Source: an uncultured Gammaproteobacteria bacterium
GTDB lineage: Bacteria; Patescibacteriota; Microgenomatia; Levybacterales; UBA12049
Direction of reading: 5' to 3'
Length of the DNA: 52,553 nt
NCBI GenBank assembly: GCA_964635045.1
Contig: CAZWMJ010000005.1
Location: 1 to 52,553 of the forward strand
Every line of letters begins with the position of its first letter. The first letter of the stretch is position 1. The notes below the pieces were generated by a model, which did no database searches, was not told the DNA's origin, and worked only from the letters and a program-made list of their open reading frames with translations. Positions 17,404-48,028 of this stretch are shown piece by piece. The translations under genes and the position numbers were made by a program.

Positions 17404-17404
17404 C

Positions 17405-21565: not shown

Positions 21566-21571
21566 CTAGAG

Positions 21572-21642: not shown

Positions 21643-21645
21643 GTT

Positions 21646-21888: not shown

Positions 21889-21892
21889 ATTT

Positions 21893-21967: not shown

Positions 21968-22042
21968 ATCCTCATAATTATAGCACAGGAAGCGATTTTT
22001 TTGCGGTTGACCTTGGCTTCTAATTCAAATTATAATAATTGA

Positions 22043-22996: not shown

Positions 22997-23043
22997 ACTT
23001 GAAGCAAAGTCTCATTTACGATACAATGGAAACTGTAAGTATC

Positions 23044-23126
23044 GGGCGAGTGGTGGAATGGTATACACGAAGGCCTTAAGAGCCTTTGACCGCAAGGTCG
23101 TGTGGGTTCGACTCCCTCCTCGCCCA
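23044..23126 (+). tRNA. tRNA-Leu(TAA)
   Basis: GGGCGAG acceptor, AAGGC-CTTAAGA-GCCTT, long variable arm; one T-stem mismatch. Confidence 0.92.
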
Positions 23127-23127
23127 C

Positions 23128-23436
23128 ACCTGCAGAGCAGGTTTCTTAAGACTTAATGTATAAGGTTTACTTATTAAAAAGTTTAGCTAAACCTGAAAAA
23201 AGTTATGTAGGTAGAACAATTAAACCGATAGTGGAACGTTTAAAAGAACATAATTCAGGTCAAGCGAGGTCAACTAAATCTTATATACCGTGGAAGCTGA
23301 TATATTATGAACAATTTTATTGTGAATTATGTTCAGATAAAAGAGAGGTTTTTCTGAAATCGGGAAAGGGTTTTAGATTAAGAAAAATTATATTAGAAAA
23401 CCAAGAGTTATTAAGATAGTGTTCTGCTTTGCAGAA
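23128..23436 (+). mobile_element. 309-bp GIY-YIG cassette with inverted hairpin termini, between tRNA-Leu and tRNA-Pro
   Basis: Left end ACCTGC-AGA-GCAGGT; right end GTTCTGC-TTT-GCAGAA(C), where the C is +1 of tRNA-Pro. Confidence 0.75.
23156..23419 (+). CDS. minimal GIY-YIG nuclease (87 aa)
   Basis: MYKVYLLKS..SYVGRT..RLKEHN..STKSYIPWKLIYYE..KREVFLKSG. Confidence 0.92.
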   Translation: MYKVYLLKSLAKPEKSYVGRTIKPIVERLKEHNSGQARSTKSYIPWKLIYYEQFYCELCSDKREVFLKSGKGFRLRKIILENQELLR

Positions 23437-23510
23437 CGGGGAGTAGCTCAGTTGGCTAGAGCGCGCGGTTTGGGACCGTGAGGTCGGAGGTTCAAGTCCT
23501 CTCTCCCCGA
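23437..23510 (+). tRNA. tRNA-Pro(TGG)
   Basis: CGGGGAG acceptor, CGCGG-TTTGGGA-CCGTG. Confidence 0.95.
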
Positions 23511-23513
23511 CAA

Positions 23514-23563
23514 GTTTACACTGAGGAGCAAAGCCAAGTCAGACTTGGCAAAGCGACGAAGTG
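23514..23563 (-). repeat. tRNA-abutting repeat with nested GCCAAGTCAGACTTGGC palindrome
   Basis: gtttacactgaggagcaaa-gccaagtcagacttggc-aaagcgacgaagt|G, where G is +1 of tRNA-Gly. Confidence 0.75.
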
Positions 23564-23633
23564 CGGGTGTAGTTCAATGGTAGAACACGACTTTTCCAAA
23601 GTCGATACGAGGGTTCGATTCCCTTCACCCGCT
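23563..23633 (+). tRNA. tRNA-Gly(TCC)
   Basis: GCGGGTG acceptor, CGACT-TTTCCAA-AGTCG, U73. Confidence 0.95.
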
Positions 23634-23771
23634 CACAAGTTCCGAGTGGGCGGGGCGGTGCGAAGTACCGCCCATGGGTTTAGGCCTTCAGAACTCACCT
23701 TTTTGTCGGAGAGTATGAGGTTCGGGCCAAGCATTTTGTGTTTGTTGAAACTTGAGGATTTGCTCCTCCTT

Positions 23772-25499
23772 CTATCCAAAAGTAAATGCAAAAATCTCTG
23801 TTTTGTTATCCTCAAATTCGAGTCTTAAAATATGTCTCCCTGCAGTTGGTAAATTAATCAATTTATATAACTTATCTGAGTCAATCGTAACGATACCCTC
23901 TCTGTTATCCACTCCGAAATTTTGCAGTTTGTCATCAAGATAGACCTTTACTTTTGCTGGAGTACCTTTTGTACGCATGACTAGAAATACTTCCTTGGAT
24001 TCAAAGTTAAGAAGTAATTTTGCGCCTTTTTGTGGATTGGCATATTCTTCCATGACATTCCAATTGCCTGCGTAAGCAACTTGATTGCTCCCCAAACTGG
24101 TGGGAGATGTATAGGTACCAAGAGCATCTTTCTTAAGATGCTCAAGAGAAGCAAAGTTGTCAATACGTCCATATCCCAAATATATCTCAGGAGTTTTTGT
24201 TTGTACTTGATAGGTTGGATTATTTATCTCGAATGTTACATCTTTGGCACCAGTTTCTTTGAGTAAATCCTGAATTACTTCTTCGGTTTCATCATAAGCA
24301 CCTTCACCAAAATGGGTGTAGCGGATATACCCTTCCTTATCTATAATGTATTTAGCAGGCCAGTAGCGGTTGTTGTAAGCTTTCCAGGTAGCAAAATCAT
24401 TATCCTGGACAATTGGGTAGGGAAGCTTGAAGTCTTTGATTGCCTGTGCTAGATTTTTCTCGCTCTTTTCAAACTCGAATTCCGGCGAATGGACCCCAAT
24501 AATTATCAGCCCCTTGTCATTGTATGTTTTCCACCATTTTCGAAGATACGGCATAGTTCTTTGGCAATTGATGCAGCTATATGTCCAGAAATCGATGATC
24601 ACAACTTTACCTTTTAGTTGCTTAAGAGTGAGTGGGTCACTGTTAAACCACGCTCCCCCAGGAATAAGTTCTGGCGCAACTGGACCTTTCGGTAATGTCA
24701 TATCTGAGATAGGTTTACCAATTTTTGTTTTGTCTATAGGTTTTTGATTTATTTTCTCAAGCTCTTTTTTGACTGATATATTATCTTCAAATTTGGTTAA
24801 GCCAACTCCATATTGTGGGAAAGTGTTTAAAACAAATGTTTGAAACTTCCTATCAATATTAAAAAATATTCCAATGGCAGTTAGGATCATTAATATTCCG
24901 AACAGTTTTTGGATATTCCCAAGATTTGAAAGCAACCAGGGAACACGTCGAAGTGCATTTTGTCCACCAAGTATTATCAAAAACATCGGAATTGCAGTAC
25001 CCAGAGAATATGCAAGAGTAATAAGAAAGGCATCAAAAGTGACAGAGCCGGTAATTGCCAAAGATATAACAGATGCGAGGATTGGGCCGACACACGGTGT
25101 CCAGAGAAGTCCCACAGAAAAACCTATCAGTAATCCTCCGCCAAAGCCAGTTCTCTTTTGGCTACTTGGCATAAATCCTGCTAATTTGGAAAACAACCTC
25201 TCAACAACCAACTGAAACTGTGGAATAAGAAGTGATGCACCAAACCCCGCTATAACCACTACTGAAACAAGTCTCAGCATATCTGCTGAAATACCACTGA
25301 GGCGAACTATGGTTGAAAGGAAGAGAGTGAAAAAAGTAAAGCTTAAGATAAAGCCAATAACCACACCCATGGGTCGTGATTTTCCAATATTTTGACCTCC
25401 GATACTTGACGTAAGAATAATTGGGAGTATTGGTAGTATGCAAGGAGAAAGTATTGTTATAACTCCTGCTAGAAATGCAAATGCAATTAGTAATATCAT
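23772..25499 (-). CDS. dipZ: DipZ-type protein: CcdA/DsbD TM domain, thioredoxin-like domain and C-terminal domain
   Basis: SPCILPILP, WTPCVGPIL, FWTYSCINC and IGVHSPEF motifs. Confidence 0.9.
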   Translation of the reverse strand: MILLIAFAFLAGVITILSPCILPILPIILTSSIGGQNIGKSRPMGVVIGFILSFTFFTLFLSTIVRLSGISADMLRLVSVVVIAGFGASLLIPQFQLVVERLFSKLAGFMPSSQKRTGFGGGLLIGFSVGLLWTPCVGPILASVISLAITGSVTFDAFLITLAYSLGTAIPMFLIILGGQNALRRVPWLLSNLGNIQKLFGILMILTAIGIFFNIDRKFQTFVLNTFPQYGVGLTKFEDNISVKKELEKINQKPIDKTKIGKPISDMTLPKGPVAPELIPGGAWFNSDPLTLKQLKGKVVIIDFWTYSCINCQRTMPYLRKWWKTYNDKGLIIIGVHSPEFEFEKSEKNLAQAIKDFKLPYPIVQDNDFATWKAYNNRYWPAKYIIDKEGYIRYTHFGEGAYDETEEVIQDLLKETGAKDVTFEINNPTYQVQTKTPEIYLGYGRIDNFASLEHLKKDALGTYTSPTSLGSNQVAYAGNWNVMEEYANPQKGAKLLLNFESKEVFLVMRTKGTPAKVKVYLDDKLQNFGVDNREGIVTIDSDKLYKLINLPTAGRHILRLEFEDNKTEIFAFTFG

Positions 25500-25523
25500 A
25501 TTATTGTTAATTAACCTCTGATA

Positions 25524-25559
25524 CTAGTTTTTGTTTGCCCATATAAGGACAAAAACTAG
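25524..25559. other. intergenic hairpin with 11-bp arms
   Basis: CTAGTTTTTGT...ACAAAAACTAG between the thioredoxin gene and dipZ; no long U-tract on the minus strand. Confidence 0.45.
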
Positions 25560-25568
25560 CACCACAGA

Positions 25569-26066
25569 CTACTTAATATTGGCGAGTAACTCATCAGTTT
25601 TACCACCGTTCCATTTGGTTACTTCTTTTCCAAGGCCATCTATCTGGACGAATGTGTGCTGATAAGTGATTGCGTATTTTTTGGCAAGCTCCTTTTCTTC
25701 CTGATCAGTGTCAGTATCATTATAATTGACTCTAATAACTGTTACATCAGCTGGGATCTTACTCGAGTTCGCCGTAAGGTCGGCATCAGCTGGTTTACAG
25801 ATTGGGCACCAATTAGCGTAAAAATATAAGACCCTGCGCTTATTAGCTGATCCGTCAAGTACCCCCTTTGAGTACTCAACATAGCGTGAACTATCTTTTT
25901 TCATCATGACATCATCCTGCTTTGTAGTATTTCCCTTTTCCATGGTAGCTTTTTCCTGCTCCATTTTTACTTTTTCAGCCTGTTGAGAATTCTGATTTGC
26001 TATAAACAACCCTCCCACAACCAGAACTAAAACGACAACGCCTGCAATTATGATTCCTTTATTCAT
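25569..26066 (-). CDS. membrane-anchored thioredoxin-family protein
   Basis: YFYANWCPIC (CxxC) and ITYQHTFV; N-terminal TM. Confidence 0.9.
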   Translation of the reverse strand: MNKGIIIAGVVVLVLVVGGLFIANQNSQQAEKVKMEQEKATMEKGNTTKQDDVMMKKDSSRYVEYSKGVLDGSANKRRVLYFYANWCPICKPADADLTANSSKIPADVTVIRVNYNDTDTDQEEKELAKKYAITYQHTFVQIDGLGKEVTKWNGGKTDELLANIK

Positions 26067-26090
26067 TTATTTTTCACCCCCCCTCTCATA

Positions 26091-26456
26091 TTAATGTTTG
26101 ATATGCCCATAAATCAGTCCGAGTATCTTAGCTAATAAACCAATACAAAGCGAAATAACAAGAAAAGGATCAACCTCTCCTTTGAAACTTTGAAAAATAA
26201 CACCGAAGGTAAGTGTTGCAATAACAGCGAAATATGCAAACCGAGACGCAATGAATTTATGGAATTGTTCTCTTTCATCACCAGGTGTCTCTTTCCATAA
26301 AGCGGCGGCGAAAATAATAAATAGAACAACCAAGAACGGAACCATAAATGGATGGAGGGACTGTGGCATTAGGAGGTCAAGCGGATTTATAAAAAAGACT
26401 AGCAGTCCAATAAGGGCAAGCGAGATGATTATTTCACCGATAAATTTATTCTTCAT
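26091..26456 (-). CDS. small membrane protein (4 TM)
   Basis: Hydrophobic segments, DEREQFH motif, directly after the XRE regulator; start moved to ATG 26456. Confidence 0.7.
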   Translation of the reverse strand: MKNKFIGEIIISLALIGLLVFFINPLDLLMPQSLHPFMVPFLVVLFIIFAAALWKETPGDEREQFHKFIASRFAYFAVIATLTFGVIFQSFKGEVDPFLVISLCIGLLAKILGLIYGHIKH

Positions 26457-26658
26457 ATTTATATATAAACACTTCCTCGACAGGTTTTTTAAAAGACCTG
26501 GCAATTTTCATACCAAGCAACAGTGAAGGGATATAATTTCCCTTTTCGATTGCAATGACTGTCTGCCTTGAAACACCTAGAGCTTTTGCGAATTCTTCCT
26601 GGGTAACATCTTTTTCTTTTCGCAGCTCTAAAACTCTGTTATTAACATGTTCTCTCAT
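26446..26658 (-). CDS. XRE-family HTH transcriptional regulator
   Basis: TQEEFAKALGVSRQTVIAIEKGNYIPSL; start moved to ATG 26658. Confidence 0.92.
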   Translation of the reverse strand: MREHVNNRVLELRKEKDVTQEEFAKALGVSRQTVIAIEKGNYIPSLLLGMKIARSFKKPVEEVFIYKYEE

Positions 26659-26667
26659 AATTCCGTA

Positions 26668-26732
26668 AATGTCAAGTAGATTTGACATTATTTTAGAAGG
26701 CGAGAGTGGCTTTGTCAAGTAGGATTTACATT
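26668..26732 (-). promoter_or_regulatory. promoter with two palindromic operators
   Basis: TTGACA (26718-26713), 17 nt, TAAAAT (26695-26690); operators AATGTCAA-GTAGAT-TTGACATT (26668-26689) and TGTCAA-GTAGGA-TTTACA (26713-26730). Confidence 0.75.
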
Positions 26733-26870
26733 TTAACACCCGGTTTTGATTAGCTTATAATTATTTATAAAACTCCGGCAAATTTTCCCGCTCCGGCTTG
26801 AACGGATAAACGGGGCTACTCAGCATAAAATATGTTGTAAAGTCTCATAATTTGGTATAATTGAATATAT

Positions 26871-26900
26871 GCGCTTGCGCTGAAGAGCAAAGCGATGAAG
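26871..26900 (-). repeat. tRNA-abutting repeat, empty allele
   Basis: Minus strand CTTCATCGCTTTGCTCTTCAGCGCAAGCGC; inverted partner at 26976-26997. Confidence 0.7.
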
Positions 26901-26972
26901 CGCCCATAGCTCAACGGATAGAGCAAGTCGGTTCTAACGATTAGGTTGGGGGTTCGAATCCCTCTGGGCGCG
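26900..26972 (+). tRNA. tRNA-Arg(TCT)
   Basis: GCGCCCA acceptor, AGTCG-GTTCTAA-CGATT; G at position 32. Confidence 0.9.
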
Positions 26973-27073
26973 CCTCACATTCGTTCGGCGCAAGCGCTTT
27001 ACATCTCTTTGTTTCATTGATATACTTTGTATTGGAAATTGGTAGTATTGGTATTTATTGGTAGTATTTTTTT

Positions 27074-27146
27074 GGTGGTTGTAGCTCAATGGTAGAGCGC
27101 AAGCTTGTGGAGCTTGATGTTGCGGGTTCGATCCCCGTCAGCCACC
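27074..27146 (+). tRNA. tRNA-His(GTG)
   Basis: G-1:C73 pair, GTGGTTG acceptor, CAAGC-TTGTGGA-GCTTG. Confidence 0.96.
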
Positions 27147-27212
27147 CATAAAGCAGAACAAGTTCGCTCATGGCTACAGCCTCACATGTAAAAACTACAT
27201 TCATTAGGATCC

Positions 27213-33271: not shown

Positions 33272-33274
33272 TAG

Positions 33275-33347
33275 TGAGCCGCCTCGGAGTCGAACCGAGA
33301 ACCTACTCCTTAAGAGGGAGTTGCTCTGCCAGTTGAGCTAGCGGCCC
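33275..33347 (-). tRNA. tRNA-Lys(CTT)
   Basis: GGGCCGC acceptor, ACTCC-CTCTTAA-GGAGT. Confidence 0.95.
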
Positions 33348-33422
33348 ATTCATTTGAGGAAATGAACGTTATTTAGTATACTATAAGAAACAAGTTTAGA
33401 GCAAGTGTATTTTAGATAAAGA

Positions 33423-33495
33423 GCGCCTGTAGCTCAACGGATAGAGCACCTCGCTTCGGACGAGGGGGTTGGGGGTTCGATTCCCTTCAGGCGCG
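33423..33495 (+). tRNA. tRNA-Arg(TCG)
   Basis: GCGCCTG acceptor, CCTCG-CTTCGGA-CGAGG. Confidence 0.93.
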
Positions 33496-33545
33496 CAAAA
33501 AATTTTGACAATATCTTTAATATCTGCTAGCATTTCAAAGCATAG

Positions 33546-35148: not shown

Positions 35149-36507
35149 ATGTTAGTTTTTCGAAAGCGTCTAATCTATTGGTTGATAAAAGAATATATTA
35201 AAAAATCCGGTAGAACATTTTTATTCTTTTTCGCAATTGGTCTGATATTTTTTTTTATAATTTCACGCGTGTTGACGTTGGGTATATTCAATATAATACC
35301 AATCAATAGCGAATCTATAGGTATTGTCGGATCATATACGCTGGAGAAGCTGCCTTCAGAAATACTTGACCAGTTATCGATTGGTCTAACATCGGTATCG
35401 GCGGATGGCAGAATATTACCTGCTATTTCTGAAAAATGGAGAGTAGAAAACGACGGCAAAAAATACGTTTTCGAACTCAAAAAAAATCTTTATTTTACCG
35501 ATGGTAGTAAGCTTACCTCAAATGATATTAATTATAATTTTTCAAAAGTGACTGTCAAGAAAATTGATCGCCACAAGATTAGTTTTGAATTGAAAGAACC
35601 ATATAGTCCATTTTTGGTCAGCGCTTCCCGTCCGGTATTTAAAAAAGGCTTAGTGGGTGCGGGAAGCTATAAATTAAAAAAAATAAAGTTTAATGGCAGC
35701 TTCGTGGAATCATTAACGTTGGTTTCCGTCAAAAACAGCTTCAATACCAAAAAATATTTTTTTTACCCAACCGCCAAAGCATTGAAAACCGCTTATATGC
35801 TTGGCGAAGTGTCTAGAGCCGCAGGGCTTCTGGACACAACATATCGAAATGTTAACCTTGCTGAGTTTACCAACACTTCTGTGAATCGTCAAATTGATTC
35901 TTCACAAATAGTTTTGCTGTTTTACAACACCCGCGATCCAATTCTTTCAGAAAGAGAGGTTAGAAACGCTCTTTCTTACGTCCAGCCGGACAATTTCCCG
36001 GAAGGCAAGCGGGCATACACGCCAATTTCACCGCTGTCCTGGGCTTATGCTTCACAGTATGCAAATAATCAGGATTTGGAGTACGCTCAGACTCTCCTTT
36101 CTTCGTCTAATGCGGTCAAAAACAGCAAAAACGATTTAACTCTTGAGATAAAAACATTTGCCGAATATAAGCAGGTAGCGGAAAATATTGCAAAATCCCT
36201 GACCAAAGTTGGTGTAAAAAGCAAAATCGTGATTGTGGACTCCATACCGGCAAACTACCAAATATTTATAGGTAATTTTTTAGTACCTAAAGACCCCGAT
36301 CAATATATGCTTTGGCATTCGGGACAGGAAAATAACATTACCAGATACGAAAATAAAAGAATTGATAAATTGTTGGAGGACGGCAGAAAGACCGTTGATA
36401 TTAACGAACGTAGGAAGATTTACGCGGACTTTCAAAAATATCTTCTGGCCGATTCTCCGGCCTCATTTCTCTATTTTCCCTACAAATACGATATTACAAG
36501 AAAATAG
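35149..36507 (+). CDS. ABC transporter substrate-binding protein, family 5
   Basis: FTDGSKLTSND, FELKEPYSPF, DPDQYMLWHS and IDKLLEDGR motifs. Confidence 0.85.
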   Translation: MLVFRKRLIYWLIKEYIKKSGRTFLFFFAIGLIFFFIISRVLTLGIFNIIPINSESIGIVGSYTLEKLPSEILDQLSIGLTSVSADGRILPAISEKWRVENDGKKYVFELKKNLYFTDGSKLTSNDINYNFSKVTVKKIDRHKISFELKEPYSPFLVSASRPVFKKGLVGAGSYKLKKIKFNGSFVESLTLVSVKNSFNTKKYFFYPTAKALKTAYMLGEVSRAAGLLDTTYRNVNLAEFTNTSVNRQIDSSQIVLLFYNTRDPILSEREVRNALSYVQPDNFPEGKRAYTPISPLSWAYASQYANNQDLEYAQTLLSSSNAVKNSKNDLTLEIKTFAEYKQVAENIAKSLTKVGVKSKIVIVDSIPANYQIFIGNFLVPKDPDQYMLWHSGQENNITRYENKRIDKLLEDGRKTVDINERRKIYADFQKYLLADSPASFLYFPYKYDITRK

Positions 36508-37792
36508 CCTGCCGGCGAAGTTTTCGGTGGTGGGCAAGGGCAAAACGGTGAGCTTCATCTCGAAGCCGCTGGAGTAATTTAAGCGCGCGGCTGTTTCTTG
36601 GCAAGCGAATTATGGTAGCACCCTTAAAATGTCCTTTTGGAATAACAATTTCTTCTTCACGCTTCGCCAAACCGATAACAGGAATTTTTAAATCAGTTTC
36701 TTTAACGACGGTTTTTGCGGCATTGACTTGATTTACTCCCCCATCAACAATAATAAGGTTAGGTATGACCCATTCGCGATGTTTTAGTCTTCTTCGCAAA
36801 ACCTCCATGAGCATCGATACATCATCGGGCGTATGCTTTAACCTGATTTTAAACAAACGATACTGACTTTTGTCAATGACGCCCTTTGCGGCAACCACCA
36901 TGGAGCCGGTGGCTTGTTTCCCCTGAATGTTGGAGATATCATAGCATTCGATTCTGGAAAGATTATAAACTTTTACGCCGTAATTTTTTAGCGCATTTTT
37001 TAGCTCGTTGATATCTAATGCGGATTCATCACTTAGCAAGTTTGGATTTTGAGCGTATTCTATTGGGTCTCTGATAGACGCTGTTACAACATTGATTGTA
37101 TCAATCTGTTTTTTAATTAGTTTTGCTTCTTCAAAGTTTTCATTTTTTGCCGCTGTTTTCATTTTGTCAAACAAAAGTTTCAAAATATATTCTTTTTTGC
37201 CTTCAAGAAATGCAATAATCATTTTTATTGTTTGTCTGTATTTTCGCCGTAAAACTTCCGAGTTAAACGCAGGTAGGCAGGGACAAAGATTGAGATAATG
37301 ATATAAACATGGTTTTTTCCCATGATTTTTAACTGACTGGTACGGAAAAATCCTGCGGATCATTTTGAGAATTTTTCGAACGTCTCCAATATTTGGATAC
37401 GGCCCAAAATAAACCGCCTTTGGATCATCAATTTTTCTAACTTGCAGGACAGCGGGAAACATGTCTTTTACGGTAATTTTGATAAACGGATAGGCCTTGC
37501 CGTCCGTCCAACGAACATTATATGAAGGATTGTATTTTTTAATAAGATTCGCTTCAAGCAGTAAAGCTTCCAGTTCAGACTCTACCAGAATGTGAGAGAT
37601 TTTATAAATTCTTGAAACCAGACTGGCGGTTTTTGGGGGCAGACTTTCAATAGCTCCGAAATAACTCGCAACTCGCAGTTTTAGATTTTTTGCCTTGCCG
37701 ACGTAAAGTACATTACTCTTTTCGTCTAAAAAAAGATATACGCCGAAGTCTTCCGGCAATGACCGATAAGATGAGTACAAAAATCGACGCAC
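36494..37792 (-). CDS. uvrC: excinuclease ABC subunit C, lacking the C-terminal HhH domain
   Basis: LYVGKAKNL, IECYDISNIQG, DGGVNQ and RDEAHRFA motifs; GTG 37792 has AGGAGG 8 nt upstream (ORF track starts at 37801). Confidence 0.93.
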   Translation of the reverse strand: MRRFLYSSYRSLPEDFGVYLFLDEKSNVLYVGKAKNLKLRVASYFGAIESLPPKTASLVSRIYKISHILVESELEALLLEANLIKKYNPSYNVRWTDGKAYPFIKITVKDMFPAVLQVRKIDDPKAVYFGPYPNIGDVRKILKMIRRIFPYQSVKNHGKKPCLYHYLNLCPCLPAFNSEVLRRKYRQTIKMIIAFLEGKKEYILKLLFDKMKTAAKNENFEEAKLIKKQIDTINVVTASIRDPIEYAQNPNLLSDESALDINELKNALKNYGVKVYNLSRIECYDISNIQGKQATGSMVVAAKGVIDKSQYRLFKIRLKHTPDDVSMLMEVLRRRLKHREWVIPNLIIVDGGVNQVNAAKTVVKETDLKIPVIGLAKREEEIVIPKGHFKGATIIRLPRNSRALKLLQRLRDEAHRFALAHHRKLRRQAIFL

Positions 37793-39563
37793 CGATAACA
37801 CCTCCTAAAATTGTCCATTTTGTCACAAAAATGGGTGATATTTCTATCTTGTTTTGAATATTAGTTTGACCGGAGAGTATTGTAATAGTATCTTGTTCAT
37901 TTGTCAAAAACGGCGTTTTTTCAAAGGAAAAAGATCTGTCAATATATCCGAACGGAGGTATATTGCCAAAGGCAATTTTTTGAGTTTTCGGCTTAAGTTT
38001 AGTTGACCGAATCGTAACAGTTTGGGCTCCGACAACTCTTCCCCCGCGATTATATATTCGAAGTGACCCGCCAACCGGCAGACCCGATAGTTGTTTTGGC
38101 GACACCTCGCTGGTAAATAACACGTTCTCATTATATTGAGTTTCCTGTGTAGTGAAATATACCGACACATCTTTGACATTTTCAAATCCGGGAATTTTAT
38201 AACCTCCCGCCGGAGGGGGATAACTGCTGTTGTATCCCTTAACCACAAAAGCGATATGATCGAAATCCATCACATTGAAATAGTCAACCCCTCCGGTGGT
38301 ATTTCCCCAAGTCGGATCTACCATTACCCAAGTCATAAGCTCCCTGTCGTAATACTCGGGCCATGCATGAAGAACGTCCTTCACCAGCGATAGAGGTCTT
38401 TCTCTGGAATTATCCGTGTAGGCAAAACCATCCACTTCCCGAGCAGGAATTCCGGCGGCCCGGGCAAGAGCCACGAAAAGATCTGTAAATTCCAGGCATA
38501 CCGCGGAAGCCGGATTATTTAAAACATTGACGGCACCTAAACGCGGTTTGCTGTTTGTAACTCTTGAATAGTCATAGGTTAAATTCTTCACCAAATATTG
38601 GTAGATGGCGGCCGGGGTTTTTAGCGAATTGGCAAGCTTTTTAATCTCATCATTTTGTGTCTGCCAGTAAGGTTTTTCTATTAAGTAGGGAGAAAGATCC
38701 GTTTCCGATAAAATTTCTTTTTTGGGGTAAAGCGACAATTCAACCTTACCTTTTACCACAACATCTTTTTTTTCAGAAGGAGAAAGAGAATACTTCGCCA
38801 GCCAATTTCCGTCCCCGTCTTCAACCACGTTTACAGGCGCGGGCGTTATATCTTCTATAAAAACATCCTGGTAATTGGTGGCGGGAGGCAGGGCAATCTC
38901 GGTTTTAACCGGAAATAAATTATTATTTTTCAGATGGTAGGAAAGTGTGAAACCATATATTTGTTTTTCTCCGTAAGCGATGGAAATTCCCGATTTTTTC
39001 AATTGATCTTTGGTAAAATCCAAAGTGTTATTTTGGTAACTTAAGACTTTAAAAAAGTCAGGTTTTACGTAGGAGGGCTTGCCAAAAGTCTGAGGAGTTT
39101 TAACGTGCACCGTAAAGTTTGAGAAATCGCTTTGATTTGAAAGCCCGGGAATATTTATCTCCCAAATACTGCCTTGTTTTTTAGCAACGTCATCGGTATC
39201 AAATTGCAGATTAAAATTAAGAATTGCCCCCTCCCCCACCACCCGCTTGTTAAACGACAGCTCAATATTGTTTCCCTCACTGGTTTTCGTGACAACCGGA
39301 TTGATTAGGCCGTCTGGATCGTTTGCGCGAATGTTTTTTATATCGCTGAATCCCAACTGTATTTTGTAGGATGAGGCATAGGAATTAGCGGACTTATTAG
39401 TCAAATTAACATTGAGATTGACATTGGTTACGCCGTTTATATTGATGGTGTAAATTACATCGGCGGAAATTGTAAAGTTTTCCGACGCCTGAATATGTTT
39501 AGAGAAAACAGAAAAAAACAAAAACACGATTGCGCCAATCAGAAAAATTTTCTTCATCCTCAA
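37713..39563 (-). CDS. secreted or membrane-anchored transglutaminase-like protein
   Basis: AVCLEFTDLF, HAWPE and VDPTW triad motifs; signal peptide and C-terminal TM. Confidence 0.88.
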   Translation of the reverse strand: MRMKKIFLIGAIVFLFFSVFSKHIQASENFTISADVIYTININGVTNVNLNVNLTNKSANSYASSYKIQLGFSDIKNIRANDPDGLINPVVTKTSEGNNIELSFNKRVVGEGAILNFNLQFDTDDVAKKQGSIWEINIPGLSNQSDFSNFTVHVKTPQTFGKPSYVKPDFFKVLSYQNNTLDFTKDQLKKSGISIAYGEKQIYGFTLSYHLKNNNLFPVKTEIALPPATNYQDVFIEDITPAPVNVVEDGDGNWLAKYSLSPSEKKDVVVKGKVELSLYPKKEILSETDLSPYLIEKPYWQTQNDEIKKLANSLKTPAAIYQYLVKNLTYDYSRVTNSKPRLGAVNVLNNPASAVCLEFTDLFVALARAAGIPAREVDGFAYTDNSRERPLSLVKDVLHAWPEYYDRELMTWVMVDPTWGNTTGGVDYFNVMDFDHIAFVVKGYNSSYPPPAGGYKIPGFENVKDVSVYFTTQETQYNENVLFTSEVSPKQLSGLPVGGSLRIYNRGGRVVGAQTVTIRSTKLKPKTQKIAFGNIPPFGYIDRSFSFEKTPFLTNEQDTITILSGQTNIQNKIEISPIFVTKWTILGGVIGASIFVLILSVIAGRLRRISFFRRKE

Positions 39564-39653: not shown

Positions 39654-40640
39654 ATGAGTGCGGAGAGGGCAAAACATATTGAACTTGAAGGATTTAATGC
39701 AATTTTGCCAGAAAGCGTGATAAAACTTCCAAACGGAACTTTTTGGTTAGAGTTAAAAACTAAATCTGGATCCGTTGAGGGAGTACTGCATTTACCCCCT
39801 CAACCTAATGGTTCAATTTTACTTTTTGAACCAGACTTTCCCGGTGATGCGTCGACTAGATTAGAGCAACTTTGGGCAACAAATTTGGTTGAAAATGGCT
39901 ACACAATATTTGCTGCAAGACACAACGGAACTATTATAAATGGACAGCATTCCGACATTTACTTGAACTGTCCTGAAAGACAAGTGCAGGCAAAAGCAAA
40001 GGATCAGGAAATTCTTGGAGAAAAAGATAGTCCAACAATGGCGGATTGGCTTAAAGAACCACTTGTTATGATGGAGGCGTTTGCCCCATTCTATCAAGAA
40101 GTTGTTCTGGCGGGTCATTCGTTTGGCGCTCTCGCAACTCTTTTTTCGTTAATAGATTTTTCGAAACAAAATCCGGAATTAACTAGTCATATCAGAAGAT
40201 TTGTATCTCTTGCCGGGGCAGTTGGTAGATTTATAGGTGATGGCGAAGGTCCGATGAAAGGATGGCATATGTATGTAGATACGGATGCTGTTCGTGCAAA
40301 AGTCAAAATAGGAAGTAAAGACGAAAATCTGGAAGCGCTTAGGGATGCGTATATAAAAATTCACGAACAAGCTTCTTTCTTTCCAGTAGATATGGATTTT
40401 CTATTTGTAGTTCCATGGGGAAATGAAGAGGGAACGATGGATGAATTAGTCCCCCCCGAAGAAGCGCTAGATATGATTTCTTCCTTAGGTAGAGGGCATT
40501 TAATTCTTGATCAGGGAGAACAATCGGATGTACATAGCGGGAGGCTTGTTCACGACATGCATAATCTTAGGCCTGATAGCTTGGTTCAGCTTCTCAACAA
40601 AAATTGGCTTCCCCCAGATGAATTTTCCATCTTACCCTAA
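39654..40640 (+). CDS. alpha/beta-hydrolase-fold protein
   Basis: AGHSFGA nucleophile elbow; DELVP and VHDM candidate acid and His. Confidence 0.65.
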   Translation: MSAERAKHIELEGFNAILPESVIKLPNGTFWLELKTKSGSVEGVLHLPPQPNGSILLFEPDFPGDASTRLEQLWATNLVENGYTIFAARHNGTIINGQHSDIYLNCPERQVQAKAKDQEILGEKDSPTMADWLKEPLVMMEAFAPFYQEVVLAGHSFGALATLFSLIDFSKQNPELTSHIRRFVSLAGAVGRFIGDGEGPMKGWHMYVDTDAVRAKVKIGSKDENLEALRDAYIKIHEQASFFPVDMDFLFVVPWGNEEGTMDELVPPEEALDMISSLGRGHLILDQGEQSDVHSGRLVHDMHNLRPDSLVQLLNKNWLPPDEFSILP

Positions 40641-40658: not shown

Positions 40659-42206
40659 TTATACTTTCCAATCATCTATTCTGCTAAAAATAGGATCGGA
40701 ATCTGTAATTTTGGGTGGGTAAAGCGTATATAAGCCGGTTTCTGGGTCTTTCTCGCCTGTGAATCCAAATCTCCTATAAAAATCTAATACGTTGCATTCA
40801 TCAATTGTCAAAACTGGTTTTTGTCTTTCAATAAGTTGATCTACAACCTTTTTTCCCACTCCAGATCCTCTTGATTCTTGACTAAGATAGATTACTCTTT
40901 TGTTTTCATACTCTGCAAATACGCCAATTATTCTGCTATCCAAAAATATTGGTTTTAAAACCATCTCACTCAACGTATCTTCCTTATGTATATCAACTAA
41001 ATGTTGTGTAAATTCTTCTAAGTTTTTTTCCCATTCCAGCCGTAATCTTTCAACCCCGTCTTCAGGTAAACCAATTAAATATCCGTGATGCAATAATTCA
41101 ATAGAAAATTCATTCCTGTTTGGATCTGCACCAATTTGCTTGATAATCTCATCCACTTCTTCTTTGGAGCCGCAAGGTTGAGGAAATGAAGTTACGTTGG
41201 ATGATTTACCCCATTGCGAGTGAAAATGAAGCAGATATTTAATGTTTGGAAAATAGCGGTACAAAGAATCACTAACAGCAGTATCTATTGATGATTTTGT
41301 TCCTCCTTTAAAAAAGACGTTTCTGTTTTCATGGTCAACTAAAGCAATCGCCGATTCGTCAACAGTCGTTTTACTTTTGTCTACTTGTCTTGGAGTAACA
41401 ACTATAAATTCACCGTACCTCATTGAGATATTTCCAGAGGTGTCGAAAAGAAGCTTGGTATTTTGGGCAAATTGAAGCAATCTAGAAAACTTTTCTTTTT
41501 CTTTCATGGGAACATCGGGAAGATCTGATACTTGCTCCGTGTGATACCAGCTTACCCTTGATCTTTTTTTGACGAACTCCACAAGTTTTCTTGATACATC
41601 TTCTCTGCTTCCGACAAGATTAATAGTACCACCTTCAGCAGTGACAAGGATAACCGGATGCATTCCATCGTGAAGATCCACGGAATCGTTTGCAACAGTT
41701 AGATTTAAATGGGCACTTGCATTTTGCTCTATCGCAGCAGCTATTAGTTCTTGTCTCGTTACTCCGGACAATAATTTAAAGCCTACAATAAATACAGGAT
41801 TTCCATATGTTTCTCTTAATAATGGAAGAATTTTGGGTGTTGGTTCTAATTCAATCGTTAAACCTTCTTGTGATGAACTTATTTTTCCATCTACCACCAC
41901 TCTGGGTCTATAATCGGCAACCGCAGCTGCATGAATGATTATATCTGGTCTCTCTTTACATAAAAGCATACCTTGAAGACTTTGTGCGGTTGTAAAAAAT
42001 TCGTGATTAACCTCTGGAATTGTACGGCCAAACAGTGCCGGTACATCTTTATGGCATTGTACGGTAACATCATAACCACTATCAACTAAAGCCTGTGCTA
42101 TCCAATAACCAAATCTTCCGGTGGAAAAATTCGTGATAGCTCTAACCCTGTCAATTGGTTCTTTAGTCCCGCCAGTAGTTACTATTGCACTTTCCAGACT
42201 TCTCAT
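40659..42206 (-). CDS. CoaB-like ligase, class II aldolase-like and GNAT triple fusion
   Basis: TTGGTKEPIDRVRAITNFSTGRFG, HAAAVADYRP and VGFKL; TSGNISMR, LLHFH and HHG; RGSGVGK and FYRRFGF. Confidence 0.8.
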   Translation of the reverse strand: MRSLESAIVTTGGTKEPIDRVRAITNFSTGRFGYWIAQALVDSGYDVTVQCHKDVPALFGRTIPEVNHEFFTTAQSLQGMLLCKERPDIIIHAAAVADYRPRVVVDGKISSSQEGLTIELEPTPKILPLLRETYGNPVFIVGFKLLSGVTRQELIAAAIEQNASAHLNLTVANDSVDLHDGMHPVILVTAEGGTINLVGSREDVSRKLVEFVKKRSRVSWYHTEQVSDLPDVPMKEKEKFSRLLQFAQNTKLLFDTSGNISMRYGEFIVVTPRQVDKSKTTVDESAIALVDHENRNVFFKGGTKSSIDTAVSDSLYRYFPNIKYLLHFHSQWGKSSNVTSFPQPCGSKEEVDEIIKQIGADPNRNEFSIELLHHGYLIGLPEDGVERLRLEWEKNLEEFTQHLVDIHKEDTLSEMVLKPIFLDSRIIGVFAEYENKRVIYLSQESRGSGVGKKVVDQLIERQKPVLTIDECNVLDFYRRFGFTGEKDPETGLYTLYPPKITDSDPIFSRIDDWKV

Positions 42207-42279
42207 AAATCAAGTGAATTTTAGCACTTGATAAATCAAATAGCAATAAATTGAGATGTAAAACTATATATGTTAGAAA

Positions 42280-45156
42280 TTAGAGAACTTTTTTAAGGAA
42301 TTGTCCTGTGTAGGAGGATTTTACTTTAATTAAATCCTCTGGGGTGCCCTGCGCCACTATATGCCCGCCCTGATCTCCTCCCTCCGGACCCAGGTCAATA
42401 ATCCATTCGGCGTTTTTCACCACATCAAGATTATGCTCAATGACGATAACCGTATTCCCCTGATCAACCAGATTACGCACCACTTTGAGCAACTTCTCCA
42501 AATCCGCAAAGTGCAGTCCGGTGGTAGGTTCATCTAAAAGATATAACGCCCCTCTGCCTCTCTTTGACAGCTCGGAGGCCAGTTTTACCCGCTGCGCCTC
42601 CCCTCCCGATAATGTTGGAGCGCTCTGGCCAAGTTTTATATATGAGAGCCCTACATCATAAAGCGTTTGTAATTTATGCGCAAGTCCGGGAACGAACGAA
42701 AAAAAGTTCAGCGCTTCGGTAACGCTCATCGATAAAACATCGGCGATATTTTTTCCATTAAATAAAACCTGCAAGGCTTCAGAAGCATACTGTTTTCCTT
42801 CGCACACCTCGCAAGTTACATAAACATCCGGCATAAACTGCATTTCAATTTTGAGTTGTCCTTCGCCCTCGCAAACTTCACATCTGCCGCCTTTGACATT
42901 AAAACTAAATCTCCCCGGGCCATATCCCCTAAGGCGCGCCTCTTTAGTTTTGGCAAAAAGTTCTCTAATGTAGGTAAAAGATCCGGTATAGGTAGCCGGG
43001 TTGCTCCTGGAAGTCCTGCCGATTGGCGATTGATCTATTAAAAATACATTTTTTATATTTTCCTCACCCGTAATTCTTCCATAGGCGCCGGGTTTCTGTC
43101 TGTGAAATGGATTTTGTTTTTGCATAAGAGCGTGATATAAAATATCATTGACAAGTGTTGATTTGCCGCTTCCCGACACGCCGGTTACCACAATAAACTT
43201 GTTGAGCGGGAAATTAACGTCTATGTTTTTCAAATTATGTTCGGATGCTCCATGAATAGTAAGATATTTACCGGATGTTTGAGAATCTTTAATAATTTCC
43301 AAACCGCGATTTCCAATATCTATTTTTTTCTTTCCGCTGAGATACTGTCCGGTCAGAGAATTACTATTTCTTTTTAGCTCATCAACCGATCCCCAAGCCG
43401 TAATTTTTCCCCCATTTTCCCCCGCGCCCGGACCAAAATCAACTAAAAAATCCGCCTCTTCCATTGTCTCCTTGTCATGTTCCACAACAATCACCGTGTT
43501 CCCCAAATCCCTCAGTCTCTTAAGGGTTTCGATAAGTTTTTTGTTATCGCGCTGGTGAAGACCAATTGACGGCTCATCCAACACATAAAGAACGCCTGTT
43601 AGTCCGCTGCCGATTTGGGAGGCCAGTCTGATTCTTTGCGCTTCGCCTCCGGCCAAAGTCTGCGCCCCTCTTGACAGCGTTAAATAATCTAAACCTACAT
43701 CTACCAAAAAACGAATCCTGGTTTGAATTTCTTTAATAATTAGTCCGCCAATCTCCAATTCTTTTGAATTTAGAACTTTTCTCAACTGATCAATAAACTC
43801 CAAAACGGCGATAATTGAAAAACTGCAAACATCAACGATAGATTTGCCATTTATTGTCACGGATAACGCTTCTTTTTTTAGCCGACTACCTTGGCAAGTA
43901 GTACAGACTTCATATCTCATAAACCGTTCAATTTGCGATTTAATAAACATTGAATCGTTTTCGCGGTGGCGCTTACGAAGCTCTTCCACAATACCCCGAA
44001 AAGGTTCGAATATAACAGTTTCTCTGCCCCATCTGTTATTTCCAGCAACTTCATATTCTTTGTCGGCGGTTCCCTCAAGTATCACTTTTTTTTCTGCTTC
44101 GGAAAACAGAGACAATCTTTTTGATTGAGAGATATTATTTTTCTCGCAAAATATCTTAAATGTTCTGGCAAACCAGGTATCCTGCTGAGAAACATTGGCA
44201 AACGGCAGAATTCCTCCCTCGGCAATTGACAAATTGTTGTTAATAATCAAATCCTCGTCAATGGTTAACACTGTTCCCAGCCCGCCGCAAGCTGAGCACG
44301 CCCCGTTGGGAGTGTTAAAGGAAAACAGTCGCGGCTCAATTTCAGATAGAGAGATATTGCAATTGGGACAGGCGAATTTCTCCGAGAAAAGTTCGTCTTT
44401 CATCTTTCTGGGTTTTTCCGGAAGATTAAATCCTTTATCCTGAATAATCGAAGCAATGATCTCTCCGTTGCCGAATTTTAAAGCTATTTCCACATCGCGG
44501 CTTACTCTTTCCCGATCTGTTTTTTTCGTTAAAATTAACGCGTCAACCACCAATTCAATGGTGTGCTTATTGGTTTTTATTAAAATGAAATTGTCGTCAA
44601 TTAAAAAAATCTCTCCGTCTATTCGCGCCTTTTTATAACCCCGTTTTTTTAAATCGAGAAAAAGCTCTCTATATTCTCCTTTTCTATCTTTAACTAAAGG
44701 CGCAAGTATCAATAATTTAGTCTCCTTCGCCTTGGCAATAATGGCGTCTGTGATCTGTTCCTTGGACTGACGGGAAATCTCAAGGCCACATTTGGGACAA
44801 TGAGGATGGCCGACTCGGGCAAACAGCAGACGCAAATAATCGTAGATTTCGGTAACCGTCCCCACCGTGCTTCTTGGATTATGCGATGTTCCCTTCTGAT
44901 CAATGGAAATGGCGGGAGAAAGTCCGATGATTTGATCAACATCGGGTTTCTTCATAATGCCGAGGAATTGACGGGCGTAAGATGACAAACTTTCCACGTA
45001 TCGCCTCTGCCCCTCCGCGTAAATTGTGTCAAAAGCCAAGCTGGATTTGCCGCTGCCGGACAGTCCGGTAAAAACCGTCAGTTTATTTTTGGCAATCTCC
45101 AAATCGATATTTTTTAGATTGTGTTCTCTGGCTCCTTTTATGATGATGCTATCCAT
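42280..45156 (-). CDS. uvrA: excinuclease ABC subunit A
   Basis: GLSGSGKSS, GVSGSGKST, two LA/SGGEAQR signatures and Zn fingers. Confidence 0.98.
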   Translation of the reverse strand: MDSIIIKGAREHNLKNIDLEIAKNKLTVFTGLSGSGKSSLAFDTIYAEGQRRYVESLSSYARQFLGIMKKPDVDQIIGLSPAISIDQKGTSHNPRSTVGTVTEIYDYLRLLFARVGHPHCPKCGLEISRQSKEQITDAIIAKAKETKLLILAPLVKDRKGEYRELFLDLKKRGYKKARIDGEIFLIDDNFILIKTNKHTIELVVDALILTKKTDRERVSRDVEIALKFGNGEIIASIIQDKGFNLPEKPRKMKDELFSEKFACPNCNISLSEIEPRLFSFNTPNGACSACGGLGTVLTIDEDLIINNNLSIAEGGILPFANVSQQDTWFARTFKIFCEKNNISQSKRLSLFSEAEKKVILEGTADKEYEVAGNNRWGRETVIFEPFRGIVEELRKRHRENDSMFIKSQIERFMRYEVCTTCQGSRLKKEALSVTINGKSIVDVCSFSIIAVLEFIDQLRKVLNSKELEIGGLIIKEIQTRIRFLVDVGLDYLTLSRGAQTLAGGEAQRIRLASQIGSGLTGVLYVLDEPSIGLHQRDNKKLIETLKRLRDLGNTVIVVEHDKETMEEADFLVDFGPGAGENGGKITAWGSVDELKRNSNSLTGQYLSGKKKIDIGNRGLEIIKDSQTSGKYLTIHGASEHNLKNIDVNFPLNKFIVVTGVSGSGKSTLVNDILYHALMQKQNPFHRQKPGAYGRITGEENIKNVFLIDQSPIGRTSRSNPATYTGSFTYIRELFAKTKEARLRGYGPGRFSFNVKGGRCEVCEGEGQLKIEMQFMPDVYVTCEVCEGKQYASEALQVLFNGKNIADVLSMSVTEALNFFSFVPGLAHKLQTLYDVGLSYIKLGQSAPTLSGGEAQRVKLASELSKRGRGALYLLDEPTTGLHFADLEKLLKVVRNLVDQGNTVIVIEHNLDVVKNAEWIIDLGPEGGDQGGHIVAQGTPEDLIKVKSSYTGQFLKKVL

Positions 45157-46928: not shown

Positions 46929-46932
46929 ATTG

Positions 46933-47006
46933 TACCGCGTGCGGGAGTCGAACCCGCGATTTTCGGGATGAAAACCCGACGTCCTAGGCCACTAGACGAA
47001 CGCGGC
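46933..47006 (-). tRNA. tRNA-Glu(TTC)
   Basis: GCCGCGT acceptor, TCGGG-TTTTCAT-CCCGA. Confidence 0.94.
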
Positions 47007-47040
47007 AAAGTCAGACTTTGCCAGCCAAGTTTGACTTGGC
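47004..47040. repeat. tandem palindromes at the 5' end of tRNA-Glu
   Basis: GGCAAAGTC-A-GACTTTGCC (47004-47022, overlapping tRNA +1 to +3) and GCCAAGT-TTG-ACTTGGC (47024-47040); same family as 23533-23549. Confidence 0.75.
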
Positions 47041-47142
47041 GGCCTGCTAACAAGTATTATAGCAAATTGTGAAATAGATTAAAATAACACAGTACCACCA
47101 TGTGGCACTGTGTCCGAAATAAATTCAAGAACTAAATCTAAT

Positions 47143-47805
47143 TTATTTCAGCTTTTTCTTTAAGGCCTCAACCACTTCTTTCGCCGAACCCTGTCCTCCC
47201 AAGCCGAATGCTATTCCTCCGGCTATTGCCACCATGGCCACAAATCCGGTAAATAGTATTCTGATCAGGTCACTGGCTACGCCAAGCTGATTAAGTACGG
47301 CTAAAAAGACAAATATCGTTATAGCCCAACGCGCAACAGATGCTACCGTTTGAGCTGTTTCAGACGATATGCCTCGACTTGACGCCAAAATTACGTCATG
47401 AGAAAGCCGTGAGAAAACCAGTCCGACAAGACCTATGATTGCCGCCACAAACACGTTTGGCAGGTAAATTAAAAATGTATTTAATACCGTTGTGATTTGA
47501 GGTAATCCCCACACGTCTGCTGTTGGTATTAAAAATAGCACGATGATAAACCACCTGACTATTTCCGCCAATATGTTTGACCAAACAAATTCTTCTTTGG
47601 CTTCCGGCACCCCGTATTTGTGCAAAAACGCCTCTATTTTCAAACTTTTCAAAAGTTCCAAAACAAGGCCTTTGAGTATGGAAGCGACTATTATACCTAC
47701 AAGAAGAATTATAACTCCGGCCAAAAACTTTGGGACAAAACCTGCCACCGCGCCTAGACCGCTATTGAGGGATACTATTATGCTTTGACCGATATCAGGT
47801 ACCAC
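47143..47805 (-). CDS. conserved TM-helix-repeat membrane protein (MscS-associated/CmpX-like)
   Basis: FVPKFLAG, YLPNVFVAA and VLNQLGVA repeats; GTG 47805 preceded by GGAGGTG. Confidence 0.75.
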   Translation of the reverse strand: MVPDIGQSIIVSLNSGLGAVAGFVPKFLAGVIILLVGIIVASILKGLVLELLKSLKIEAFLHKYGVPEAKEEFVWSNILAEIVRWFIIVLFLIPTADVWGLPQITTVLNTFLIYLPNVFVAAIIGLVGLVFSRLSHDVILASSRGISSETAQTVASVARWAITIFVFLAVLNQLGVASDLIRILFTGFVAMVAIAGGIAFGLGGQGSAKEVVEALKKKLK

Positions 47806-47932
47806 TTTCTTTCTCACCTCCCTTCATCCGCCGAGATTGGTGATACGAAGGCGGTATACACATATCTATAATTAGTGTAGAATGCTATTTTCATCTTGTC
47901 AAGTGGGAATAATCACTGTATAATTTAAAAGG

Positions 47933-47954
47933 GTTTACCCTGAACGAAGTGAAG
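47933..47954 (-). repeat. tRNA-abutting repeat, minimal copy
   Basis: gtttaccctgaacgaagtgaa|G, where G is +1 of tRNA-Lys. Confidence 0.7.
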
Positions 47955-48028
47955 GGCCGGTAGCTCAGCGGTAGAGCAGGAGCCTTTTAAGCTCTTGGTC
48001 ACAGGTTCGAATCCTGTCCGGCTCACCA
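47954..48028 (+). tRNA. tRNA-Lys(TTT)
   Basis: GGGCCGG acceptor, GGAGC-CTTTTAA-GCTCT, ends ACCA. Confidence 0.96.

Follow-up and report, generated by a model that had tools for sequence, protein, structure and literature searches.

The contig analyzed here (CAZWMJ010000005.1; 52,553 nt, hereafter the window), designated C5 in a genome (G000) of 0.92 Mb and 88% completeness, carries, between uvrA and a convergent open reading frame (ORF), a gene for a 515-amino-acid (aa) protein in which a CoaB-type ligase domain, a class II aldolase-fold domain, and a minimal GNAT domain follow one another in a single uninterrupted frame with no internal stop codons (Table 1). CoaB, or phosphopantothenate–cysteine ligase (PPCS; EC 6.3.2.5), catalyzes an essential and well-studied step of coenzyme A (CoA) synthesis and is a drug target; both free-standing forms and fusions with CoaC are known. 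The first-pass annotation of the window, made from its letters alone, had called the CoaB, class II aldolase, and GNAT domains, and Pfam, Foldseek, and an alignment to AraD bear these calls out; the motifs it quoted (LLHFH, HHG, and RGSGVGK) are present, an Asp (D308) does occupy the position of FucA Glu73, and a Pfam search found, as it had stated, no CoaC flavoprotein domain in the ORF.

Table 1. Features of the fusion gene and its immediate surroundings (window coordinates)
Feature	Coordinates	Strand	Basis or remark
CoaB ligase–aldolase-fold–mini-GNAT fusion ORF	40659..42206	−	Complete, 515 aa, ATG start; Pfam; model
PPCS domain, monofunctional type III-like (residues 1–216)	41559..42206	−	PF04127; 2gk4 profile match; Foldseek
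Linker after the KR..V.W junction (residues 217–234)	41505..41558	−	27% mean identity, no invariant column
Trimmed class II aldolase/AraD-fold domain (residues 235–405)	40992..41504	−	PF00596; AraD alignment; Foldseek
Minimal GNAT domain (residues 406–500)	40707..40991	−	Acetyltransf_7; 6k5m profile match; model secondary structure
C-terminal tail (residues 501–515) plus stop codon	40659..40706	−	NUDIX attachment point in four-domain relatives
Promoter-like site, TTGCTA-17-TAAAAT with TG	42218..42246	−	Consensus match only, weak; shuffled sequence has more sites
Convergent 328-aa ORF, possible alpha/beta hydrolase	39654..40640	+	GHSFG nucleophile-elbow motif

Four contigs, each from a different sequencing run and an independent assembly, encode this 515-aa protein without a single difference. 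A word-indexed search uncovered ~46 full-length homologue clusters (36–87% identity) with the same domain order, and the domain junction KR..V.W (R215 and W220 in the window protein) is kept across homologues. Over 22 aligned members, the ligase domain has a mean identity to the window protein of 51% with 24 invariant columns, the aldolase-fold domain 44% with 17, and the GNAT domain 38% with 3. The AlphaFold model of the full-length protein (22 homologues) has a mean predicted local distance difference test (pLDDT) score of 93.4 and a predicted template modeling (pTM) score of 0.90, which suggests that the domains pack into one compact body instead of being strung loosely together. Residues 218–515, modeled separately, reached a pLDDT of 90.7.

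The ligase domain keeps the residues of both PPCS half-reactions

The Pfam DFP profile (PF04127) matches residues 6–178 of the window protein (E = 2.3e-34), which hold the ligase motifs TGGTKEPID (10–19), R22, N26, AAAVAD (93–98), GK108ISS, FK144LL, and ND (173–174). All 22 aligned homologues keep G12, T14, E16, D19, A94, A95, D98, and K108, and every homologue covering the region keeps R22 and N26, which align to VRSITNHSTG of the PPCS structure 2gk4. In Mycobacterium smegmatis CoaB, the active site contains R207, N211, A280, D281, and the first Lys of a K-X-K-K motif, with the Arg/Asn pair R207/N211 serving the second, cysteine-transfer half-reaction (PMC7794376). The conserved ligase residues of the fusion are the equivalents of these residues. 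By the roles described in that study, the Gly-rich GGTxExID loop, the Asp of AAVxD (D98), and K108 would make up the nucleotide and cation site. The family profile has 2gk4 as its best PDB match (E = 1.8e-41) and also matches Mycobacterium and Escherichia coli PPCS structures; likewise, Foldseek ranks 2gk4 first for the N-terminal domain (E = 9e-18), along with 1u7z and 6th2, at template modeling (TM) scores over the target of 0.79–0.85 (0.83–0.85 for 1u7z).

In fold, size, and motifs (GGTxExID, R..xN, AAVxDY, FKLL, and ND...QH in common with 2gk4), the domain is like the type III PPCS of Streptococcus pneumoniae (2gk4; coaB_strep, TIGR02114). As in 2gk4, a single-Lys K-I-S-S loop replaces K-X-K-K, and, as with streptococcal coaB, a separate coaC follows the fusion gene in relatives. 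Unlike 2gk4 and TIGR02114, the fusion adds two C-terminal domains (~300 residues), and unlike monofunctional PPCS, the window fusion is an accessory gene alongside a canonical CoaBC, to whose ligase half it is ~30% identical. With bifunctional CoaBC (Dfp, TIGR00521), it shares the ligase domain, the catalytic residues, and the joining of CoaB to another domain that may organize the oligomer, but the partner is a C-terminal aldolase fold plus GNAT instead of an N-terminal flavin mononucleotide-dependent decarboxylase.

Metal-site residues of the aldolase-fold domain are invariant

The Aldolase_II profile (PF00596) matches residues 253–334 (E = 2.2e-9; 37.9 bits versus a cutoff of 22.2) over profile positions 16–96 of 183, and the family profile aligns to AraD (1jdi) with E = 1.2e-11. 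Foldseek with the model of residues 218–515 returned, at E ~1e-8, FucA (2opi; E = 2.3e-8), AraD (1jdi; E = 5.9e-8), YgbL, and the non-sugar members TqaM, NovR, and pyruvic oxime dioxygenase. Specifically, KSSID308T of the window protein (KPSiD308T in the profile) aligns with KPSSD76T of AraD, i.e., the position of FucA Glu73, and H327-x-H329 (LLHFH) aligns with H95-T-H97 of AraD, with H374 following in an HHG motif (H374 and G375). The AraD-type metal ligands (D308, H327, H329, and H374) are invariant across the 22 homologues. Family-specific invariants are R273, K277, C345 (FPxPCG), E350, and H402, of which R273 and K277 stand in place of the phosphate-loop residues of FucA and AraD.

The fold, the GN..S, KPS(S/I)DT, and HxH motifs, and a third His in an HG motif are common to this domain and AraD/FucA, and, as in AraD, the acidic metal ligand is an Asp. 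Unlike AraD and FucA, the domain has its phosphate-loop residues replaced by TPRQVDK with the invariant Arg and Lys, has an added FPxPCGxxEE motif, and leaves the second half of the Pfam profile unmatched. Its scores fall far short of the equivalog cutoffs for araD (26.7 bits versus 389), mtnB (29.8 versus 137), and fucA (12.3 versus 400). When the characterized second-shell acid/base residues (FucA Tyr113; AraD Asp120 and Tyr229) were compared, the hidden Markov model (HMM) alignments to AraD and FucA ended ~6–13 residues past the HxH motif, and the segment bearing FucA Tyr113/AraD Asp120 proved ~20 residues shorter in the fusion, so that the chemistry need not match that of the sugar enzymes. 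Candidates to take the place of the second-shell residues are E349/E350 and C345.

The same core motifs (KPSVDT, HxH, PxPCGxxEE, and GHG) occur in a remote family (E ~1e-20) comprising P0233 and P0243 (~350 aa) and P0239 (488 aa), with a locus at G217:C3:147198-147584 (L041). In these proteins, the aldolase-like core is all that is left of the fusion; it is preceded by an unrelated, Rossmann-like N-terminal domain of ~190 aa that has no Pfam match, and one member ends in a PTH2 (peptidyl-tRNA hydrolase 2)-like domain. The metal domain is thus the constant element of a wider uncharacterized superfamily.

A minimal GNAT domain closes the protein

Acetyltransf_7 matches residues 432–483 (E = 7e-5), PF13508 is recorded for many homologues, and the profile matches the plant serotonin N-acetyltransferase 6k5m (E = 4e-4). 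The predicted CoA-pyrophosphate loop R446-G-S-G449-V-G451 (RGSGVGK, 446–452) is kept in 19–21 of the 22 homologues, C471 is conserved, and an FY..GF motif is present. Foldseek listings were occupied by CoaB and aldolase matches; the secondary structure of the model (three strands, helix, strand, helix, strand) fits a GNAT. Like small GNATs (Acetyltransf_7, 6k5m), the domain has an R-x-x-G-x-G CoA-pyrophosphate loop and an FY..GF helix, and unlike them it has only ~95 residues, lacks the N-terminal arm, and has an invariant Cys471. Another small GNAT for comparison is PanZ/PanM, which connects acetyl-CoA with the synthesis of pantothenate. All three domains of the fusion look catalytically or ligand-competent, and because the ligand and catalytic sites are kept, we read the two extra domains as probable active parts rather than scaffolds.

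The aldolase–GNAT module is rare and can carry a fourth domain

The aldolase-plus-GNAT part, used as query in an exhaustive HMM search, retrieved 104 representative clusters (E < 1e-30), with the module in the same position. Approximately 26 clusters (490–575 aa, module from residue ~215–295) represent the three-domain form, ~43 (~40%) are 600–740 aa long, those checked carrying an extra C-terminal NUDIX domain, and a few (425–440 aa) have a shortened N-terminal part. The NUDIX domain matches MutT/NudG-like families best, and its match to CoA pyrophosphatase is weak (E = 8e-6) and far below the cutoff. A strict peptide pattern retrieved 10 carriers from 185,579 species genomes and 12 loci from a metagenome collection. 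The nearest named carriers are Candidatus Daviesbacteria, Saccharibacteria, Uhrbacteria, Parcubacteria/Patescibacteria metagenome-assembled genomes (MAGs), some ~1-Mb MAGs labeled Gammaproteobacteria, and one 3.5-Mb Oligoflexia. The first-pass annotation did not recognize the CoaB–aldolase–GNAT architecture, and we found no description of it in the literature searched; the architecture, its NUDIX-bearing form, and the coupling to CoaC appear undescribed there, the individual domains being known.

Relatives hold the module in operons with CoaC or CoaB

A comparison of the gene neighborhoods of homologs, which had been proposed at the first pass as a check, was made by all-against-all BLAST of the ORFs at ~24 distinct loci. 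Three loci of distant relatives (L022, L035, and L019; 33–36% identity over the C-terminal part) connect the family to CoA and are the best pointer to its function. In L022, a 188-aa stand-alone CoaC begins 3 nt past the stop codon of the fusion; it has the PAMNxxMW and LACGD motifs, matches coaC_strep and the CoaC half of coaBC at 1.7e-41, and scores far worse to UbiX. At L035, the fusion overlaps by 4 nt (ATGA) with the start of a CoaC gene (54% identity), and an Amidohydro_2 gene (L035:4323-5228) lies directly upstream. The L019 homologue has lost the catalytic DFP core: it has no DFP match, and its alignment to the family begins at residue 103. Its operon (L019:7557-9777, on Patescibacteria MAG contig DASTLG010000125) consists of the module, a TANGO2-family gene (PF05742, E = 2.9e-29; protein starting MCT...), and a separate CoaB. 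The CoaB gene begins within the last codons of the TANGO2 gene and runs off the contig end; it continues on G006:C107, where it is followed by CoaC, with CoaE on the same contig.

Since a catalytic ligase is fused to the module or stands beside it, with CoaC following, the fused domain would do the job of CoaB, and the CoaC/CoaB operons likewise argue for a role of the module in CoaB's pathway. For the same reason, the secondary-metabolite or generic small-metabolite role that had been among the earlier suggestions becomes less likely, and the suggested link to pantothenate and CoA gains support. In humans, TANGO2 is a disease gene whose connection with vitamin B5 and acyl-CoA is unexplained (PMC11867700, PMC13044924), and the presence of its bacterial homologue among CoaB and CoaC genes in one operon offers a genomic clue to TANGO2 function.

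Across the ~24 loci, the most recurrent neighbor, at 7 loci, encodes a TrmB-like winged-helix regulator of ~260 aa and in most cases directly precedes the family gene in divergent orientation. Such a regulator fits a ligand-controlled accessory function. Other recurrences are CoaC or CoaB (3 loci), CN_hydrolase (2), and UvrA (2). The two Nit-like CN_hydrolases (L014:6490-7242 and L032:4523-5275) are 71% identical and differ in orientation. Class III aminotransferases adjoin the family member in L011 and L024, the latter locus also having a pyridoxal phosphate (PLP)-dependent decarboxylase.

A putative accessory, CoA-linked multi-enzyme

Our interpretation, to which we give about even credence, is that the fusion is an accessory, CoA-linked PPCS-type multi-enzyme that includes a mini-GNAT for CoA binding and an aldolase-fold domain dependent on a metal. 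What follows on the substrates of the three domains and on possible channeling is inferred. Judging from sequence and fold, the ligase would bind cytidine triphosphate, form an acyl-cytidine monophosphate from 4′-phosphopantothenate or a very close analogue, and then transfer the acyl group onto the amino group of L-cysteine. With an adjacent CoaC, as in the relatives, the product would be decarboxylated and enter the CoA pathway. Together, the AraD-like domain and mini-GNAT form one conserved two-domain module, which is fused to the ligase or, in a single relative, shares an operon with a ligase gene of its own. The aldolase-fold domain would hold a divalent metal (Asp plus three His) beside an anion-binding Arg/Lys pair and may act on a phosphorylated or carboxylated alpha-hydroxy-carbonyl group; a possible structural rationale is that 4′-phosphopantoyl would match the spacing of L-ribulose 5-phosphate, the AraD substrate, in P-O-C-C-C(OH)-C(=O). 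The GNAT would bind CoA or acetyl-CoA and could either couple the ligase to CoA status or acetylate an amine from the same pathway. Pantothenate-derived metabolites of this pathway and acetyl-CoA/CoA would be what the two extra domains act on or respond to. CoaB is inhibited by CoA thioesters (PMC7794376), which is a precedent for CoA sensing at the PPCS step. It also speaks for the interpretation that 7 of 10 other carrier genomes have no DFP domain besides that of the fusion.

The conserved fusion points to an uncharacterized reaction or control point beside the cysteine-adding step. Its carriers are mostly tiny-genome, Patescibacteria-type organisms with no detectable pantothenate kinase (PanK) and a patchy CoA pathway, and the fusion is therefore a concrete starting point for learning how they acquire or reuse CoA.

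Several observations weigh against this interpretation. The ligase domain scores below all NCBIfam PPCS equivalog cutoffs, at about half of each (TIGR00521, 114.8 bits versus 219.7; NF005231, 114.5 versus 265; TIGR02114, 107.6 versus 217.2), and the GNAT domain of the window protein is below the Pfam threshold (Acetyltransf_7, 23.5 bits versus 27; Acetyltransf_1, 15.2 versus 20.7). The link to CoaC or CoaB is present in only 3 of the ~24 distinct loci. As the first pass had noted, the window holds no other coa gene; the genome, however, has a canonical CoaBC on another contig (C7:8711-10066; L007:1408-2766, − strand; 194 bits to DFP and 420.9 bits to TIGR00521 versus its cutoff of 219.7), which makes the fusion a paralogous extra there. 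The aldolase-plus-GNAT module was found in 0 of 60 same-family or same-order genomes (0.6–1.9 Mb, 12 of them with a CoaBC-type DFP domain) and in 0 of 300 genomes sampled phylum-wide, one of which has the remote aldolase-core type only; the fusion gene is thus a rare, patchily distributed accessory and dispensable. Despite the failed equivalog cutoffs, the ligase very probably belongs functionally with PPCS.

The CoA pathway of the carriers raises further points of this kind. The window genome (88% complete) has no CoaD or CoaE above cutoff, no type I or III PanK, and no archaeal phosphopantothenate synthetase, so that it seems to have just the middle steps of the pathway. Of the 10 other carriers searched, seven have no DFP domain besides that of the fusion and also no CoaC-type flavoprotein (PF02441); CoaE is above cutoff in five, and CoaD is above cutoff in three. 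Five CoaC-less carriers (G001–G004 and G010) lack a full-length, above-cutoff CoaD or CoaE, although CoaE matches weakly in G001 and CoaD partially, at the end of a contig, in G003. With CoaC and CoaD/CoaE missing, 4′-phosphopantothenoylcysteine (PPC) would be a dead end in these five unless the MAGs are incomplete or use unknown enzymes. Type III PanK was found only in the 3.5-Mb Oligoflexia, and type I PanK and archaeal phosphopantothenate synthetase in 0 of the 10; thus, nine ~1-Mb carriers and the window genome have neither PanK I/III nor the archaeal enzyme, and the interpretation therefore does not account for the source of 4′-phosphopantothenate. A search for type II PanK found nothing and was uninformative, as a positive control was lacking. 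The gaps would reflect either incomplete MAGs or unknown enzymes, host exchange of substrate and product, or a different cycle.

Other readings of the fusion

One other reading, which we consider unlikely, is a plain or regulated housekeeping PPCS with the usual CoaB reaction, in which the GNAT is a non-catalytic CoA/acetyl-CoA sensor that exerts feedback control and the aldolase fold an oligomerization scaffold replacing CoaC. The fusion being the only DFP domain in most other carriers, the CoaC directly downstream in L022 and L035, and the short, subthreshold GNAT are all in keeping with it, as are the oligomeric nature of class II aldolases and adducin (Foldseek 8iah), a non-catalytic member of the fold. 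Furthermore, mycobacterial CoaB needs CoaC-driven dimerization and is inhibited by acyl-CoAs (PMC7794376). A scaffold, however, does not account well for metal ligands, R273, K277, C345, and E350 that stay invariant over 36–87% identity, and the metal and polar residues persist in the remote proteins with a different N-terminal domain, which is the pattern of an active site. The window genome owns a CoaBC as well, and a gene that none of the 60 relatives has does not serve a housekeeping role here.

Equally doubtful, in our view, is a self-contained pathway on another metabolite, the line taken by the first-pass annotation, in which a different acid and amine would be ligated and the product cleaved or epimerized and N-acetylated, yielding a candidate thiol cofactor, detoxification product, or specialized metabolite. 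The scores under the PPCS cutoffs, the absence of CoaC, CoaD, CoaE, and PanK from many carriers, and a sporadic distribution that looks like horizontal transfer speak for it, as do the ligand-type regulator adjacent in several loci and the aminotransferases and PLP decarboxylase beside L011 and L024, members from outside the candidate phyla radiation, which could supply the amine. Yet all residues tied to both PPCS half-reactions are kept, CoaC and CoaB are the only pathway genes in tight operons with the family, and no biosynthetic cluster context appears across the ~24 loci.

A long shot is that, in PanK-less cells, the family salvages or repairs 4′-phosphopantetheine/CoA at its cysteamine end. 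In such a cycle, the NUDIX domain of the four-domain members would cut CoA to 4′-phosphopantetheine, and a damaged or unwanted cysteamine moiety would be hydrolyzed off to give 4′-phosphopantothenate, either by the metal-binding aldolase-fold domain or by one of the adjacent amidase-type proteins, which are a CN_hydrolase (L014, L032), TANGO2-like N-terminal nucleophile (Ntn) hydrolase (L019), or Amidohydro_2 protein (L035). The CoaB domain would then re-add fresh cysteine, CoaC would decarboxylate the product, and the GNAT would N-acetylate the released amine. If true, this cycle would explain why carriers have CoaB, with or without CoaC, and no PanK, and it would give bacterial TANGO2 homologues a concrete CoA-linked role.

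PPC decarboxylation requires transient thiol oxidation. This bears on the very improbable reading of the aldolase-fold domain as a flavin-independent, metal-dependent PPC decarboxylase, with which the fusion alone would make 4′-phosphopantetheine where a genome has no CoaC. Seven of the 10 other carriers do have the fusion without a PF02441 flavoprotein, and the fold includes metal-dependent decarboxylases (Foldseek YgbL; 2z7b, 3-hydroxy-2-methylpyridine-4,5-dicarboxylate decarboxylase; NovR). An enolate-stabilizing Zn/Fe site, however, does not provide the thiol oxidation, the window genome has CoaBC, and the reading is disfavored because an intact aldolase-fold domain shares an operon with CoaC in L022, L035, and L019.

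Finally, an artefact (a chimeric assembly, a frameshift joining genes, or a decaying pseudogene), which the first-pass annotation had raised as a sequencing error joining separate ORFs, has a negligible probability and is ruled out by the four identical assemblies, by the ~46 full-length clusters with the same domain order and the 104 module clusters, and by the conserved R215/W220 junction and intact active-site residues, the only observation in its direction being one relative (L009) with the ligase N-terminus split off. In that relative (L009:7892-9425; P0036, on 21 contigs), a 54-aa DFP-fragment ORF overlaps a 474-aa main ORF, which may reflect a frameshift or a programmed or alternative start.

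Surroundings of the fusion gene in the window

Upstream of the fusion lies uvrA (42280–45156, − strand), on the same strand across a 73-nt gap. The promoter-like site of Table 1 sits inside this gap and may allow transcription of the fusion independent of uvrA. A uvrA gene is also upstream in L036 (L036:909-3794), a 33%-identical relative with a TrmB-like regulator in between, and uvrC lies nearby in the window (36494–37801). The proximity of uvrA may be coincidence or old synteny.

On the other side, the stop codon of the convergent ORF is, as first described, 18 nt from that of the fusion; its label as a serine hydrolase has fared less well, resting on the GHSFG motif and on subthreshold alpha/beta-hydrolase matches (E = 0.07–0.16), with no significant Pfam match and no PDB relative. 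The ORF stands beside the fusion only in contigs of the same organism (L001–L003). No homologue of it was found beside other family members, and we reject the functional link between the two genes that had been suggested. Hydrolases of four unrelated superfamilies (alpha/beta-like, CN_hydrolase, TANGO2/Ntn, and Amidohydro_2) are adjacent to the family in 5 loci, versus ~3 expected by chance on a rough estimate. They could represent non-orthologous displacement of a hydrolytic step, a lead only and not clearly above chance.

Next to the hydrolase-like ORF, positions 37713–39563 (− strand) encode a 616-aa predicted membrane-anchored protein with a transglutaminase core (PF01841, E = 1.8e-17). 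The window also contains 16 transfer RNA (tRNA) genes, all Rfam-confirmed, which is dense for a genome below 1 Mb. They lie in the stretches 15744–17756, 21571–27147, 33274–33496, and 46932–48028, and include a run of five at 17210–17756 (Leu-CAG, Leu-GAG, Val, Phe, and Gly).

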